Below, piece by piece: positions 3,149-58,524 of a stretch of 64,000 nucleotides of DNA. The position numbers and the translations under genes are program-made. Source of the DNA: Escherichia phage vB_EcoM_SA20RB. The stretch's first letter is position 1; every line of letters begins with the position of its first letter. The notes under the pieces are model-generated. The model worked only from the letters and a program-made list of their open reading frames with translations. It searched no databases and was not told the DNA's origin. The stretch lies in sequence record OL960581, one strand, 5' to 3'.

Positions 3149-4567
3149 TTATGGATAGGTATAGATGATACCAGTTTCTAAAGCAGTTTTATGAATGATG
3201 TATCCATTACGTGATTCTTGAACATCAACTTCTGGATAGTCTTTCATCATCTTCTGAAGAGTGTAACGATGCAAGTAGTATTTACTATCTGGATCTTCAG
3301 TTTTCCAATCTTTACCTTCTTCAGTCATTTTTTGGATTTCATCCATAACCCACCAACCGCACCAGATATAAGCTGAAGTACGATGTGGAAGAGGATGAAC
3401 ATAAGGTAATTCACCTTCTGGTTCCGGAGCAACTTTATCAGTTACCTGAACTTGACCTTCTGCTGTGATAGTTTTGCTATCATAATCAGTGGCAGTAACA
3501 GTTGCAGTAACTTCAATAGTTTGACTTCCAATAGATGATGTATCAACGGTGTATACATTAGTTGACCCTTCTACAGGAGAAGAATCTTTCTTCCATGAAT
3601 ACGTAATTTGTGCTTCTTCCGGAGCATCCGTAACATTAGCAGTAAATGTAGCCGAAGCATCTTGCTGAACATTAATAGAAGGAGGAGTCAATGTAACCTG
3701 TGGATTCATTGTCTTCTTATTAACTGTCAATGATACTTCATTAGAAGTAACTTCCTTTTCATTATAATTTTCTGCAGTTACTTGGGCTACGCATTTAATT
3801 CTTTTTACTCCACTTGTAGTTGGAGTATAGTTAAATGTAGAGTTAGTTTCTCCACCAACTTGTGAATCATCTACATACCACTGATACGTGGCAGACGCTC
3901 CATCAGGTTGAGAAGCTAAGGCAGCAGTAAATTGAACCGGGGTTCCAATTACTCCAGCAGCAGGACTAGCAGGAGTTACTGCCAAGGTAGTTGTCTGCGT
4001 CTTTTTATTAACAGTCAGTGACACTTCATTAGAAGTAACTTCCTTTGTATCATAATCTGCCGCGGTTACTTGAGCTACACACTTAATTGTTTTAACTCCG
4101 CTTGTGGAAGGAGTGTAATTGAATGTAGCAGAAGTTGCTTCGCCTACAGGAGAACCGTCAACGTACCATTGATACGTAGCAGTTGCGCCAGATGGCTGTG
4201 AAGCTAAGGCAGCAGTAAATTCAACGGCTGTTCCGATTACTCCTTCTGGAGGACTATTAGGAGTTACAGCTAAGGTAGTTGTTTGTGTCTTATTTTGAAC
4301 TGTGATAGTTATAGTAGCTTCTGCTGTTTCAGCATCAGTATCTGGAACTGGGTTTGTTGCAACTACTTTAATAGTTTTTTGACCGGCAGGTCCTTTTAGT
4401 ACATAACTAAAAGTTGCTTCAGTTCCATCTTGTGGAACATCGTCTACAGTCCAAGCATATGTAATAGGTCCATCTCCAGTTTGACCACTGGGTGTAGCAG
4501 TAAACTGCTGAGTCTGATCTATAACTCCAGTAGGTGTTTTAGGAGTTATATCAACTGTAAAAGCCAT
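3149..4567 (-). CDS. hoc: highly immunogenic outer capsid protein Hoc, with four Ig-like domains
   Basis: 472 aa; recognisable Hoc C-terminal capsid-binding region; two near-identical tandem 96-aa Ig-like modules; T4 Hoc as recalled is 376 aa. Confidence 0.9.
   Translation of the reverse strand: MAFTVDITPKTPTGVIDQTQQFTATPSGQTGDGPITYAWTVDDVPQDGTEATFSYVLKGPAGQKTIKVVATNPVPDTDAETAEATITITVQNKTQTTTLAVTPNSPPEGVIGTAVEFTAALASQPSGATATYQWYVDGSPVGEATSATFNYTPSTSGVKTIKCVAQVTAADYDTKEVTSNEVSLTVNKKTQTTTLAVTPASPAAGVIGTPVQFTAALASQPDGASATYQWYVDDSQVGGETNSTFNYTPTTSGVKRIKCVAQVTAENYNEKEVTSNEVSLTVNKKTMNPQVTLTPPSINVQQDASATFTANVTDAPEEAQITYSWKKDSSPVEGSTNVYTVDTSSIGSQTIEVTATVTATDYDSKTITAEGQVQVTDKVAPEPEGELPYVHPLPHRTSAYIWCGWWVMDEIQKMTEEGKDWKTEDPDSKYYLHRYTLQKMMKDYPEVDVQESRNGYIIHKTALETGIIYTYP
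3719..4294 (-). repeat. tandem duplication of a 288-bp Ig-like domain coding unit inside hoc
   Basis: Protein segments KKTQTTTLAVTPNSP...SNEVSLTVN and KKTQTTTLAVTPASP...SNEVSLTVN are about 85 percent identical; the DNA copies are visibly similar. Confidence 0.85.
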
Positions 4568-54040: not shown

Positions 54041-54832
54041 ATGGCAATTGTAGGTGTTCCTGGCTGGATTGGTGAATCTGCCGTAAATGAAACTGGACAA
54101 CGCTGGATGGATGCTGCGATGAAAGCAGTTCGTGTTTCAGTTCCTGGTTGGATGAGCTCAATGGCTGGACAATCTAAAGAAGTATATTACAGTATTGGTG
54201 CTAGCAATTCTTATAATAAAGACACACTAATAAATTGGATAAAAGCCCAAGGAAGTACTCCTGTTGTTATTACAATTACAGGCAATATCGTTTCTTCATC
54301 GACAGGTCAACCATGCTTAGATTTTCCTAGCTCATTAACTAATGCATACGTTACCTTAAATATTAATAGCGGGGTTCATGTATTAGGTCGGGGAGGAAAT
54401 GGCGGAAGTAACTCTGCCGGTGGAGCAGGCGGAACTGCAATAAATAACGGAATTGGAACTCGTTTAAGAATAAACAATAATGGTATTATCGGTGGTGGTG
54501 GTGGCGGGGGCGCTGGTGCTAGATATCATCCTTTCCCCCAAATGGATATGATATTTGGTGGCGGCGGCGGTCGTCCATTTGGTGCAGCAGGTGCAGCAGG
54601 CGGCGGCGCAGCGGCAGCATCTGCCGCTACAATTTCTGCTCCTGGTAAAGGCACTGTTTCTGGGGTTCACCATGGAGGAGATGGTGGAGATTTGGGGGCT
54701 GCGGGCAAATCTTCATATATTCAAGGTGGTACTGGAGGAACTGTTCACTCGGGTGGCGCAGCAGGTAAAGCTGTTACTGGTAATGCTCCAACTTGGACTA
54801 AAGTTGGTACAATATATGGTGCAAGAGTATAA
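54041..54832 (+). CDS. 38: tail fibre tip adhesin gp38 (T2-type, glycine-rich motifs)
   Basis: 263 aa (T4 gp38 chaperone is 183 aa; T2 adhesin about 262); C-terminal half has poly-Gly blocks (GGGGGGG, GGGGG, GGG) separating variable segments. Confidence 0.85.
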   Translation: MAIVGVPGWIGESAVNETGQRWMDAAMKAVRVSVPGWMSSMAGQSKEVYYSIGASNSYNKDTLINWIKAQGSTPVVITITGNIVSSSTGQPCLDFPSSLTNAYVTLNINSGVHVLGRGGNGGSNSAGGAGGTAINNGIGTRLRINNNGIIGGGGGGGAGARYHPFPQMDMIFGGGGGRPFGAAGAAGGGAAAASAATISAPGKGTVSGVHHGGDGGDLGAAGKSSYIQGGTGGTVHSGGAAGKAVTGNAPTWTKVGTIYGARV

Positions 54833-55520: not shown

Positions 55521-55793
55521 TTATTTGTTCGTATACATCTCTAGATATCGATATACACCCTCAAAACCCTCGTTGAATTCGTCGATGAGGGTTTTCTTAT
55601 CTTCTTGAGTTAATTCAGAAACAATTTTACGGAATGAATTCTGATTTAATTTTCTACCTTCATGCGTTACTCCAATCTCATTCAGAAATGCAATAAAATT
55701 AGCACGATTCTCAACAATATCTTCTCTGGAAAATTTAATCAAAATAGACGCAACAGTAATAATTTCACGAACTGTATCAATATTTTTATTCAT
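55521..55793 (-). CDS. asiA: anti-sigma-70 factor AsiA
   Basis: 90 aa as in T4; sequence recognised. Confidence 0.95.
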   Translation of the reverse strand: MNKNIDTVREIITVASILIKFSREDIVENRANFIAFLNEIGVTHEGRKLNQNSFRKIVSELTQEDKKTLIDEFNEGFEGVYRYLEMYTNK

Positions 55794-55805: not shown

Positions 55806-55958
55806 TCAATTAGTTGACTTTATTATAATATCATCAGACGCTTGATTTGTAAACTGGTCTGTGTTATTTTCTTCAAAAATTTTTTCTACGAATTCCTTGA
55901 ACGACTCACGTTCCTGAGCTACATTATGCTCGATTACTTTTTCAAGATTATGACTCAT
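55806..55958 (-). CDS. small acidic hypothetical protein
   Basis: 50-aa ORF read by hand; its ATG overlaps the arn stop (ATGA); only a weak SD. Confidence 0.4.
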   Translation of the reverse strand: MSHNLEKVIEHNVAQERESFKEFVEKIFEENNTDQFTNQASDDIIIKSTN

Positions 55959-56233
55959 TCGAAATAATCTTCAATTTCATAATCAAGGACATAAATCATT
56001 ATAGTTTTTAATACATCATCAATACTTTTTCCTGGAGCTGGAATTACGTAAAAATATCCCGCCTTTGAGGTATCTTTATAAGTTCCAACCAAGAAATCAT
56101 TATTCTCGAGATGTAGTTCTTCAACTAATTCATTAACAATTGAGTGGTATAAATTTGGTAGAAACTTATATAGCTTTTCTAGAATATCAATTTTGATTGT
56201 GTATTGAACCACAGATTGAGAATCAATAATCAT
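55955..56233 (-). CDS. arn: Arn, anti-restriction inhibitor of McrBC
   Basis: 92 aa as in T4; position between asiA and motA. Confidence 0.8.
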   Translation of the reverse strand: MIIDSQSVVQYTIKIDILEKLYKFLPNLYHSIVNELVEELHLENNDFLVGTYKDTSKAGYFYVIPAPGKSIDDVLKTIMIYVLDYEIEDYFE

Positions 56234-56316
56234 AGACCTTCCCCTTATGTTTCTGTTTGCGATTAGATTCTTTAAACGCTTTCTTCTTATCCTTATGAAC
56301 AGAAGCTTTATTAAAA

Positions 56317-56535
56317 TTATGTTTTGCGACTAAATTGTTCATAGTGCTGAATTACCTCTCTCAAACATTTGCATGTGAATGAAAACTTTTTAGCTACACC
56401 ACATTCAAATATATGTTCTCTTAAATCACGTGTGTCAGTATATCCCATCTCAACAATAAAATGTCGTATTAGATTTTTATCTTTATCATTGAGAGAATTA
56501 AAATAATCGGATTTTGAATTAATTTCCCTGGCCAA
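56317..56535 (-). CDS. hypothetical Cys-containing protein
   Basis: 72-aa ORF. Confidence 0.5.
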   Translation of the reverse strand: MAREINSKSDYFNSLNDKDKNLIRHFIVEMGYTDTRDLREHIFECGVAKKFSFTCKCLREVIQHYEQFSRKT

Positions 56536-56815
56536 ATTGAATAACCTTTAGTTGACGTTTTAGTTCTTTTATCATTTCTTCGTTCATCGCAATATAAAGA
56601 TCGCGTAAAGCAGGTTTTAACATGTCATTTATTATAGAACTAAATGGACATACATAATCTTTTCCTACAAGCTTTTTAGTGAATTCCATATCGCAGAACT
56701 TAAATCCCGGTTCATTGGCATAAATTCCCCAATTAGTTGACATCATTTTATTAGCATATTCCAGTGCCTGGATTTGATTCATAATTCCATCAATTTGAAA
56801 CTTTTTAATATTCAT
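56519..56815 (-). CDS. hypothetical protein
   Basis: 98-aa ORF. Confidence 0.55.
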   Translation of the reverse strand: MNIKKFQIDGIMNQIQALEYANKMMSTNWGIYANEPGFKFCDMEFTKKLVGKDYVCPFSSIINDMLKPALRDLYIAMNEEMIKELKRQLKVIQFGQGN

Positions 56816-57276
56816 TAGTAAAGGTCCTCAGAGTAAAGTTCTTTTTCACTACCACCGCGTTCAATACGTACTTGTCCGGCGTAAGTTGCAATAATCATTG
56901 CTTCTTCACGTGTCCAATAATTACTATATTGGTCAATAAACCCTTGGTCATCATCACAAACTTGCTGAGTAACTAATTGAGGTTTAACTACATCTAAAAC
57001 TTCTGCCATATCTTTAGAATAATGACGAGCACCTGGAATAACAAGAGTTCGTCCATCTTTTAATTTAAAACGGTTGGCTGCGCAAACAATTCGTCGTTGA
57101 TACTTTTGGTTTTCGTCCCAATATGCGGTTTGCCAACAGATTTCAGGAACTTCTGCAAGAATATCTTCTTCTGTGCATTTATAACCATGTGCTTTAAATT
57201 TTTCAACAAGACTTTCTGGAGTTTCACGAGATAAAGGCACATTCAGCATTTTTAAACGATTAATAAATGGGTTCAT
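56815..57276 (-). CDS. hypothetical protein
   Basis: 153-aa ORF. Confidence 0.6.
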
Positions 57277-57602
57277 TTAAACCATCCTTTAATACGCTGC
57301 CACAAAGTTTTCTGTTGAGCTTTGTTAACACCAATTGAGCGAATAACTGGTTGAGATTCCTGGAATTCTTTATAATCAGCAAGGTAAATTTCGTAAGCTG
57401 AATCCGTAAAGGAACTTATCGCTGCCATGAAATTATTGCGAATACCTACTGGAGCATCTTTACTTTCACGAATAATCATGTATTTACCAGTCTTAATCTT
57501 TACAATAGTTCCAAGATAAGCTCCGTGGTACCAGATGTCCCACCCCTCTTGAGTGGGTTCTGCACAACGACGAAGTTCATTGATAATTTCTAACTTGTTC
57601 AT
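57273..57602 (-). CDS. hypothetical protein
   Basis: 109-aa ORF. Confidence 0.55.
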
Positions 57603-57612
57603 TATTTATTCC

Positions 57613-58248
57613 TCACAGTTCAGATGCTACGGTGATTACTGCTTCAATGTTTTCTGCCGAGCGTTTAATGTCAAGATACACATTACCGTTTTTAGCGATT
57701 TTACATGACATTCCGATATCAGTAAATTTCTGAATATGGTGTTCCATCATTTTGTATCCAAAAATTCGCATATTTCCATTGTTATTAATTTCAAAATTGC
57801 GAATTCCGTGAGTGCGTTTTTCTAAAATAGCAAGATAGTTACTGCGGTAAGTTTCAACCTTTTTAAGAACAAATCCATTTTCATCTAAAAGTTTTAACAT
57901 GAAGTCTTTATCTTCTTCCATATCGGAAGTAATCTCACGAGCTTTACGAGTTGCTCGTTTTTTCAGCAGTTCAGGAGCGTTTTCCTGTGCGTATAAAGTT
58001 GCTGCATTTGAAATAATATCCTGAGCTTCACCCGTAATGATTAATCCATCACCAGATTTCTCTACCAGGCCTTTTTTAATCAATACACCAATATTACTAT
58101 TAACTACTGCATTACCTAAATCTGGATGCACCTCACGAACTTCTGCAGCTGTAATGAAATCTTTCTTAGCAATGGTAATTAAAATCGCAGCAGTTTTTTC
58201 ATTCAGAACATCGTTAGAAGCTTTGATGATGTAAGTTACTTTAGACAT
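57613..58248 (-). CDS. motA: MotA middle-transcription activator
   Basis: 211 aa as in T4; sequence recognised. Confidence 0.95.
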   Translation of the reverse strand: MSKVTYIIKASNDVLNEKTAAILITIAKKDFITAAEVREVHPDLGNAVVNSNIGVLIKKGLVEKSGDGLIITGEAQDIISNAATLYAQENAPELLKKRATRKAREITSDMEEDKDFMLKLLDENGFVLKKVETYRSNYLAILEKRTHGIRNFEINNNGNMRIFGYKMMEHHIQKFTDIGMSCKIAKNGNVYLDIKRSAENIEAVITVASEL

Positions 58249-58289: not shown

Positions 58290-58319
58290 ATAGTACCACA
58301 GTATGCTTTGGTTGTAAAC
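58290..58319 (-). promoter_or_regulatory. T4-type early promoter for motA
   Basis: Minus strand reads GTTTACA, 17 nt, TACTAT, preceded by an AT-rich UP-like element. Confidence 0.65.
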
Positions 58320-58340: not shown

Positions 58341-58369
58341 AAATAAAAAGGGAGAGCCTCGGCTCTCCC
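58341..58369 (-). terminator. terminator hairpin GGGAGAGC-CTCG-GCTCTCCC
   Basis: 8-bp stem followed on the minus strand by TTTTTATTTC. Confidence 0.7.
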
Positions 58370-58374
58370 TAAAA

Positions 58375-58524
58375 TTACTGCATGACTGTGATAACTGTCA
58401 TGATAACACGTTGAATTCCGAATGCAAGAAGACCTCCTGCTACGGCTGGAACAACACCTAACCCCGCCAGTAAAATGCCACCAGATACTAATGCAGCGCT
58501 TGTAATACCAATGAATGGACTCAT
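58375..58524 (-). CDS. small hydrophobic membrane protein
   Basis: 49-aa ORF read by hand (MSPFIGITSAALVSGGILLAGLGVVPAVAGGLLAFGIQRVIMTVITVMQ); SD GAGGAAA; ATG overlaps the gene 52 stop. Confidence 0.55.
   Translation of the reverse strand: MSPFIGITSAALVSGGILLAGLGVVPAVAGGLLAFGIQRVIMTVITVMQ

Follow-up and report, generated by a model that had tools for sequence, protein, structure and literature searches.

Which genes occupy the interval between the anti-sigma factor gene asiA and the activator gene motA in Escherichia phage vB_EcoM_SA20RB, and is the 39-codon open reading frame (ORF) found among them a gene? We examined positions 55806-57602 of a 64,000-nucleotide (nt) stretch of this phage (record OL960581), which is called the window throughout; the 39-codon ORF is called orf39. 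The minus-strand ORFs match the annotation of phage ime09 and of T4 gene for gene, and by this match the interval is the set of named T4 genes asiA.1, arn, arn.1, arn.2, arn.3 and arn.4, plus orf39. We consider it probable, with good confidence, that the whole forms an accessory block of T-even phages that is co-expressed before replication, with orf39 as its seventh small gene. The block and its flanks comprise the following features (aa, amino acids; pI, isoelectric point; E, E-value).

55521-55793, minus strand: asiA, anti-sigma-70 factor (Pfam AsiA, E 1e-42; length and position identical to those of T4 asiA)
55806-55958, minus strand: asiA.1, 50 aa, acidic, pI 4.6 (phrog_3762, E 1e-37; annotated as asiA.1 in T4 and ime09)
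55955-56233, minus strand: arn, DNA-mimic inhibitor of McrBC, 92 aa (Pfam DM_Arn, PF22134, 172.9 bits, E 1.7e-51)
56223-56342, minus strand: orf39, 39 codons (Pfam DUF7230; phrog_1359)
56317-56535, minus strand: arn.1, 72 aa as predicted from a TTG start (phrog_4452, matched over 72 of 72 positions)
56519-56815, minus strand: arn.2, 98 aa (phrog_1844, E 2e-50; named arn.2 in T4)
56815-57276, minus strand: arn.3, 153 aa (phrog_839, E 6e-74)
57273-57602, minus strand: arn.4, 109 aa (phrog_1594, E 2e-54; GAGGA Shine-Dalgarno site 8 nt upstream)
57613-58248, minus strand: motA, activator of middle transcription (Pfam MotA_activ, E 5e-61; MotCF, E 9e-67)

All block genes lie on the minus strand and are tightly packed, with stops and starts that overlap or abut; the asiA.1 ATG, for example, overlaps the arn stop (ATGA). 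Read along the presumed message, the order would be motA, arn.4, arn.3, arn.2, arn.1, orf39, arn, asiA.1 and asiA. We compared a 2.8-kb stretch around 55806-57602 with phage records. It shares 97.9% DNA identity with Tequatrovirus genomes such as ECP2301 and ime09, and 477 records hold at least 80% of it; on this comparison the source phage is a Tequatrovirus of the T4/T2-like kind. Genes, order, strand and spacing are the same as in the T4/T2 arn operon (T4, NC_000866; T2, bioRxiv 10.64898/2026.06.19.733364), with 97-98% DNA identity to close relatives. A preliminary description of the window, made from its letters alone, had named the asiA and motA flanks and arn, all of which the Pfam matches confirm; Arn also matches the solved structure PDB 3WX4 in sequence (E 2.4e-53). 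Its ORF coordinates, those of orf39 at 56223-56342 included, were all correct, and the 39-aa translation quoted there was exact.

The same description had presented the interval as an uncharacterised early-gene cluster, but it is neither unnoticed nor unusual: the genes are the named T4 asiA.1 and arn.1-arn.4, and the 39-aa ORF is annotated in many relatives, for example as AEK12508 in ime09 and as RB32ORF249c in RB51. Judged by these annotations, both the gene block and the orf39 family are already known, and because it re-describes a named and published gene block, the identification adds little alone. What the published five-gene description of the arn operon does not contain is the 39-codon gene, which is missing from the T4 reference annotation as well. 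Knockout, CRISPR interference and proteomic work that relies on the T4 annotation will overlook orf39.

orf39 as a protein-coding gene

orf39 had been described as an out-of-frame ORF overlapping both arn and the upstream neighbour of arn. Both overlaps exist, but they are terminal and short: 11 nt are shared with arn, and 26 nt with arn.1. The remaining 83 of its 120 nt overlap no gene, and these central 83 nt are the gap left unannotated between arn and arn.1 in the T4 RefSeq record. By this layout orf39 is a small gene in an ordinary tandem array, where neighbours overlap briefly at their ends as is typical of T4, and not a nested ORF in an alternative frame.

Short ORFs are frequent here, with 48 that reach 25 aa or more overlapping a 4.5-kb stretch. 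The length of orf39 alone is therefore not beyond chance, and we judge the gene to be real because of its conservation. The comparison covered 11 genomes, namely the window and ten diverged relatives from different genera. Across them the median proportion of non-synonymous differences (pN) in orf39 is 0.24 against 0.81 for synonymous differences (pS, saturated), giving a pN/pS of ~0.3, and the orf39 frame is the sole one of the six frames that is open in 11 of 11 genomes. Fourteen residues are invariant (N3, V5, A6, K7, F10, N11, D18, K20, R28, K29, Q30, K31, H32 and K33). Beneath the invariant R-K-Q-K-H-K and V-A-K-H the codons change synonymously (CGC/CGT, AAA/AAG, CAG/CAA, CAT/CAC), and GGG/GGT/GGA/GGC also interchange. 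These data bear on the idea that orf39 arose by chance in sequence rich in AT and in Lys codons, and is conserved only through overlapping signals. Such an idea draws on the abundance of short ORFs just noted, on the absence of orf39 from the T4 RefSeq annotation and on the codon-aligned antisense frame, which 7 of the 11 genomes likewise keep open. However, most of orf39 overlaps nothing, no other frame stays open throughout, residues are kept while synonymous sites are saturated, and Pfam and PHROG families exist for the peptide along with 151 metagenome clusters. The pN/pS ratio, the synonymous variation and the six-frame comparison thus effectively refute the chance ORF already, and we give it scarcely any credence. 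By its pattern of conservation, orf39 is a genuine protein-coding gene under purifying selection. The preliminary description had offered the 39-codon frame as a possible gene, and on this point the pN/pS ratio, the six-frame comparison and its presence in 1218 records bear it out.

orf39 matches Pfam DUF7230 with 44.9 bits (cutoff 27, E 1.2e-11) and phrog_1359 over 39 of 39 positions (E 5e-23), and all 11 orthologues match DUF7230, the best with an E of 2e-15. Membership of this family is defined by the motifs NNxVAKHxFN ... RKQKHK and a length of ~37-46 aa, which orf39 has. Compared with the members RB32ORF249c, AEK12508 and the hypothetical proteins of Straboviridae, the match is full-length, with the same invariant motifs in the same syntenic position. 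The peptide is in no way distinct from this family and is 100% identical to that of T4, whose genome (NC_000866) encodes the 39-aa peptide without annotation. A tblastn search found orf39 in 1218 of 50,697 phage records. Arn.1 was found in 807 and Arn in 484, and by record count orf39 is thus the most widely retained gene of the block. Identities fall to 57-70% in phages of Klebsiella, Cronobacter, Edwardsiella and Aeromonas. In the Straboviridae relatives, orf39 has motA or ndd towards one side and asiA or a holin gene towards the other, and in 6 of the 10 relatives it is annotated as a hypothetical protein. A DUF7230 profile search of 5.8 billion proteins returned 151 clusters, nearly all from phage contigs; among the best 120 of these 151 matches, most are 36-48 aa long.

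In Klebsiella phage KEN25_2 (L011, 2501-2626) and phage CJ20 (L012, 2501-2620) the 39-aa gene is intact and unannotated. In KEN25_2 it is overlapped, in a different frame, by an annotated coding sequence of 121 aa whose start at 2523 is probably mis-called.

Expression of the block, the arn.1 start and the ArcZ site

The transcription and pairing signals found in and around the block are listed below.

55825-55853, minus strand: sigma-70-like promoter upstream of asiA, located within asiA.1; TTTACA-17-TATTAT with TG (10 of 12 positions match in a consensus scan; pattern match only)
58290-58318, minus strand: sigma-70-like promoter, TTTACA-17-TACTAT with TG, upstream of motA (consensus scan)
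58349-58370, minus strand: strong terminator-like hairpin upstream of the motA promoter (9-bp stem, 6 GC pairs, T run)
56522-56531, minus strand: ArcZ pairing site CCAGGGAAAU, a perfect 10-nt complement of ArcZ AUUUCCCUGG
56460-56465, minus strand: GACAUU at the putative RNase E position of the T2 preprint (read from the sequence; ends 11 nt upstream of the ATG at 56448)

The consensus scan placed sigma-70-like promoters only upstream of motA and of asiA. The former is the likely source of read-through transcription into the block, as no minus-strand terminator-like site was found between the motA promoter and asiA. The block genes would then be expressed together before replication as one polycistronic message. 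This picture is inferred here, with published support, as arn.4-arn.3-arn.2-arn.1-arn form one abundant transcript in T2 (bioRxiv 10.64898/2026.06.19.733364). Most block genes carry GAGG-type Shine-Dalgarno sites. orf39 may be translated from its own GAGAGG, by coupling to arn.1, or both. The Shine-Dalgarno site of arn, AAGGGGAAGG, is formed by the H-K-G-K codons of orf39, and ribosomes finishing orf39 would run across both this site and the arn ATG.

Several observations count against a co-expressed accessory block of seven genes. No MotA box with at most one mismatch was found inside it; because of this, the 'middle' timing rests on the T2 preprint and read-through is inferred. The GAGAGG of orf39 lies 12 nt from its ATG, which is a long spacing. 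Literature searches on DUF7230 and on ribosome profiling of small T4 proteins found nothing relevant. Finally, no enzymatic or structural homology was detected for AsiA.1 or Arn.1-Arn.4, and no other ORF received a functional assignment.

The position of orf39 also suggests a reading in which its translation matters and its peptide does not: it would be a coupling ORF that feeds ribosomes to the arn start or shields the mRNA from RNase E. Consistent with this, orf39 shares 26 nt with the 3' end of arn.1 and holds the arn Shine-Dalgarno site and ATG, and in the T2 study the expression of arn depends on the stability of that part of the transcript. We nevertheless rate it as very unlikely, given the 14 residues that are invariant across the compared genomes with synonymous variation beneath them, the pN/pS of ~0.3, and the retention of orf39 in genomes without arn and in T7-like phages with other neighbours. 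A seventh gene selected for its protein remains the preferred reading of orf39.

The gene upstream of orf39, arn.1, differs from its T4 annotation, which begins at the ATG at 56448 and so comprises no more than the final 43 codons. By the comparison that follows, arn.1 starts at a TTG at 56535 and encodes 72 aa. The TTG is present in the window and in T4, with an AAAGG Shine-Dalgarno site upstream, and HX01 and PEi20 have an ATG at this upstream start. The internal Met is a Leu in PEi20 and KM16. The 29-codon extension (56449-56535) shows the same degree of constraint as the remainder of the protein, and in 802 of the 807 records found with tblastn the Arn.1 match spans 80% or more of the 72-aa form.

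This start changes the reading of the published ArcZ mechanism. In T2, the host small RNA ArcZ pairs with arn.2 at +285..+294 and protects the RNA from RNase E (bioRxiv 10.64898/2026.06.19.733364). We confirmed the identity of the ArcZ used here with Rfam RF00081 (117.6 bits). The pairing site in the window, CCAGGGAAAU, agrees in position with that of T2, is the best duplex site in the block, and covers the last arn.2 codons together with arn.1 codons 2-5. Besides this ArcZ site, the window also carries the sequence found where the T2 arn operon study proposes RNase E to act. With the pairing site intact, ArcZ would shield the message from RNase E as it does in T2. However, where the preprint places a non-coding 70-nt region between arn.2 and arn.1, the window has the conserved first 29 codons of Arn.1. 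If arn.1 encodes 72 aa, this '70-nt intergenic region' would therefore be coding, the ArcZ site would cover Arn.1 codons 2-5 in the translation initiation region, and the proposed RNase E motif GACAUU would fall inside the Arn.1 coding sequence. A site in the initiation region implies in turn that ArcZ could affect the translation of Arn.1 besides the access of RNase E.

A comparable discrepancy concerns arn.4, which is annotated with 68 aa in T4 and has 109 aa from an ATG start in the window. In the DNA alignment, T4 (L003, ~3955-3957) has ATA in place of the window ATG (57600-57602, minus strand), with no indel. The 41 arn.4 codons that are unannotated in T4 are in frame and differ from the window by 8 synonymous changes and 1 non-synonymous change; the 68-aa annotation is therefore probably too short. 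T4 arn.4 may initiate at AUA, or it may have lost its start very recently.

Candidate roles of the orf39 peptide

The orf39 peptide is strongly basic, with a pI of 10.2 and 12 Lys and Arg residues against 3 Asp and Glu residues. Its N-terminal motif NNxVAKHxFN and its C-terminal RKQKHKGK are both maintained at the protein level; the tail reads AFKESNRKQKHKGK and has no KGKGSY. We propose that the peptide acts as a small host-takeover factor, whose basic tail would dock on a polyanionic host target, likeliest ribosomal or other RNA, and whose N-terminal motif would supply the specificity. A takeover factor with an RNA-docking basic tail, analogous to but not demonstrably homologous with factors of the ArfA type, is a possible assignment that we hold only tentatively. 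It is weakened by the members of DUF7230 that carry acidic tails, as not every protein with the N-terminal motif has a basic tail; therefore it is the N-terminal motif, and not the tail, that defines the family. Functional peptides of ~26-40 residues have precedents. ArfT of Francisella is a rescue factor of 40 aa with the tail KKGGSTNKK, and its gene is unannotated in many strains; T4 Stp, with 26 aa, is a very small phage effector. Such cases show that peptides this short can serve as complete translation or defence effectors and that their genes readily escape annotation. Sequence similarity of either to orf39 is neither seen nor claimed.

In the metagenomic T7-like contigs L015-L018, for example at 3926-4090 of L015, the DUF7230 N-terminal motif (NPVAKHDHNKGG.HKDRKK) occurs in a protein of 54 aa. 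On these podophage-like contigs its gene immediately precedes those for the primase-helicase and the DNA polymerase. The motif is therefore not confined to T4-like phages.

A more specific reading starts from ArfA (PF03889), which like orf39 is small and has a K/R-rich C-terminal tail, with R-K-x-K-H at a comparable distance from a hydrophobic or aromatic N-terminal segment. In ArfA, residues 31-48 lie in the mRNA tunnel and residues 15-31 contact release factor RF2, and the protein is active when truncated at N47. On this model orf39 would be a miniature ArfA-type factor: where ribosomes have stalled on truncated messages, which are abundant in T4 infection and after the action of mRNA-cleaving defence toxins, the RKQKHKGK tail would occupy the vacant mRNA channel, and the N-terminal motif would recruit or modulate a release factor, so that stalled ribosomes are rescued or instead blocked. 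We regard this as unlikely. The same holds for its general form, in which the conserved peptide of ~40 residues, shared by T4-like and some T7-like phages, is a stripped-down ArfA-like factor that rescues or locks stalled ribosomes.

One line of evidence for a link comes from P0104, a metagenomic phage protein in which the DUF7230 N-terminal motif is followed by an ArfA KGKGSYxRK tail. It scores 27.2 bits against Pfam ArfA, above the gathering score of 25.5, and 38.9 bits against a hidden Markov model (HMM) of the DUF7230 core; none of 20,000 shuffles reached either its ArfA or its DUF7230 score. It is encoded on a large-phage contig that also carries Thy1, NAMPT and CsrA. In addition, E. coli ArfA weakly matches DUF7230 (E 0.11, residues 29-51); the DUF7230 HMM scores it at 3.4 bits (p ~0.04 by shuffling), and the reverse comparison was null. 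With hhalign and an ArfA set of 126 diverse sequences from an exhaustive representative search, RKQKHKGK alone aligned with ArfA 40-49 (RKQKHK with R41-H45), a weak score that 2 of 200 column shuffles reached. The size would also fit, as shown by the active N47 truncation of ArfA and the 40 aa of ArfT, and true ArfA genes occur in the virulent phages Arash, pf16 and J2-1.

On balance the tests of this resemblance are mixed, and mainly negative. With E up to 10 allowed, the Pfam ArfA model had no match in any of the 11 orthologues, and a profile search of PDB with the DUF7230 alignment returned nothing. An enterobacterial ArfA HMM gave the orf39 peptide 0.6 bits, which is the shuffle median, and the hhalign probability for orf39 against ArfA was 5%, over 10 columns; with a low-diversity ArfA alignment, DUF7230 gave an E of 0.09 over 8 columns. 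P0104 is a singleton, as scans of viral and metagenome contigs with degenerate patterns found no relatives of it, and it alone among family members has KGKGSY. The orf39 peptide lacks both this motif and an equivalent of the first ~13 residues of ArfA, no profile or HMM similarity to ArfA is significant, and relatives with acidic tails exist within DUF7230. Aligning the N-terminal part of orf39 to ArfA 14-25 needs three gaps in 13 residues; this three-gap alignment, which sets the V-A-K-H-x-F segment against the ArfA minidomain whose hydrophobic patch (A18, L19, L24, F25) activates RF2, has no statistical support. The resemblance between orf39 and ArfA is thus speculative, as its basis is a single hybrid protein from a metagenome together with a weak match in the tail. 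The phrase 'ArfA-like ribosome or RNA docking' is a guess rather than a classification, and one that we find doubtful. If it were true, this role would link T-even takeover to ribosome rescue, which would then be a core and previously unrecognised part of the takeover programme; in its rescue form, phage translation would be sustained despite mRNA cleavage by the host or by defence systems.

The ArfA genes of the three virulent phages are observations in their own right. In Salmonella phage Arash (L020, 2417-2641) the ArfA homologue lies in a tRNA gene cluster and is mislabelled 'ribosomal protein L2'. That of Pseudomonas phage pf16 (L019, ~3486-3638) is not annotated on the correct strand, and Pseudoalteromonas phage J2-1 (L021, 2483-2638) has a bona fide homologue. 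A literature search for phage-encoded ArfA found no paper.

The neighbourhood of orf39 suggests yet another role, in which its peptide either cooperates with the small acidic product of the next gene downstream, which is Arn in T4-type phages, or itself binds to DNA or the nucleoid. The peptide would then be a basic partner, regulator or chaperone of the DNA mimic, or a histone-like DNA binder; we consider either form quite improbable. In the window, HX01, PEi20, CkP1, phiEap-3 and leE, the gene that follows and overlaps orf39 encodes an acidic protein of 88-110 aa with a pI of 4.2-4.6, and four of these six proteins end in a shared C-terminal E-[IL]-[EQ]-D-Y-like sequence. The 12 basic and 3 acidic residues of orf39 would complement a DNA mimic electrostatically. 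Moreover, since the last codons of orf39 form the arn Shine-Dalgarno site, the expression of the two genes would be coupled. However, none of the downstream proteins outside Tequatrovirus matches DM_Arn. In Aeromonas phage GomatiRiver_11 and on the P0104 contig the product of the downstream gene is hydrophobic or basic, and in the T7-like contigs another gene takes this place. orf39 is found in 2.5 times more genomes than arn, and neutralising a DNA mimic would bring the phage no obvious benefit. We prefer the takeover factor with an RNA-docking tail over a partner of Arn.

The idea that all genes downstream of orf39 encode divergent Arn proteins was rejected, as none outside Tequatrovirus matches DM_Arn. 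The acidic proteins downstream of the 39-aa gene in L004, L005, L006, L007 and L009 may be DNA mimics, divergent or analogous, that fill one and the same slot.

Arn.3, the other small proteins and neighbouring genes

The preliminary description had found no recognisable motifs in the ORFs around arn. This does not hold, as every ORF matches a PHROG family, orf39 matches DUF7230, and the homologues of Arn.3 match PF26092; all of these are families of unknown function. The proteins are nonetheless still uncharacterised, as had been claimed: the T2 preprint of June 2026 states the functions of arn.1-4 as unknown (bioRxiv 10.64898/2026.06.19.733364).

Arn.3 has 156 homologues, all with a precomputed PF26092 match, and their alignment shows an invariant core of AANR / RHY / QGFxD / Y..R. 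An AlphaFold2 model built from the homologue alignment was confident, with a predicted local distance difference test (pLDDT) score of 87.3 and a predicted template modelling score of 0.75. Foldseek found no match for this model among PDB folds (best E 0.17), and no PDB sequence matched Arn.3. In BFVD, the model matched many uncharacterised phage proteins and, weakly (E 0.01-0.02), proteins with a 'large polyvalent protein associated domain'. The recurrence of the modelled fold gives a faint hint of a conflict-related role.

AsiA.1, Arn.1, Arn.2 and Arn.4 matched PHROG families of unknown function only. The 'anti-restriction nuclease' label of phrog_4452, the family of Arn.1, appears to be a name propagated from arn. 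No Pfam match was found for any of these four proteins and no NCBIfam match for any ORF; PDB sequence searches with Arn.4, Arn.2 and Arn.1 returned nothing below an E of 0.29. The single-sequence AlphaFold model of Arn.4 had a pLDDT of 42 and was unusable. Across Pfam, PHROGs, NCBIfam, PDB sequences and PDB folds, AsiA.1, Arn.1-4 and orf39 gave no informative match to a known inhibitor.

A host-takeover or anti-defence role had been proposed for these ORFs. It retains circumstantial support, in the transcript shared with arn in T2 and, weakly, in the occurrence of the Arn.3 fold in polyvalent conflict proteins, but no anti-defence homology was found. Conversely, homology searches assigned none of the ORFs to a structural or housekeeping function, and because no search did so, the outcome named beforehand as evidence against a takeover role was not observed. 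AsiA.1 and Arn.1-4 are phage-restricted accessory proteins, for which a counter-defence or takeover role is plausible.

Beyond the block, motA.1 (58375-58524, minus strand) encodes a very hydrophobic, Gly/Ala/Val-rich protein of 49 aa and overlaps the end of gene 52; in relatives it is annotated as a predicted periplasmic protein. On the other side of asiA, the ORF at 54041-54832 (plus strand) encodes a glycine-rich protein of 263 aa, which we take, from its sequence, to be a gp38 of the T2/T6 adhesin kind and not the T4-type gp38 assembly chaperone. On that assumption, the phage would therefore be T2/T6-like at its tail-fibre tip.

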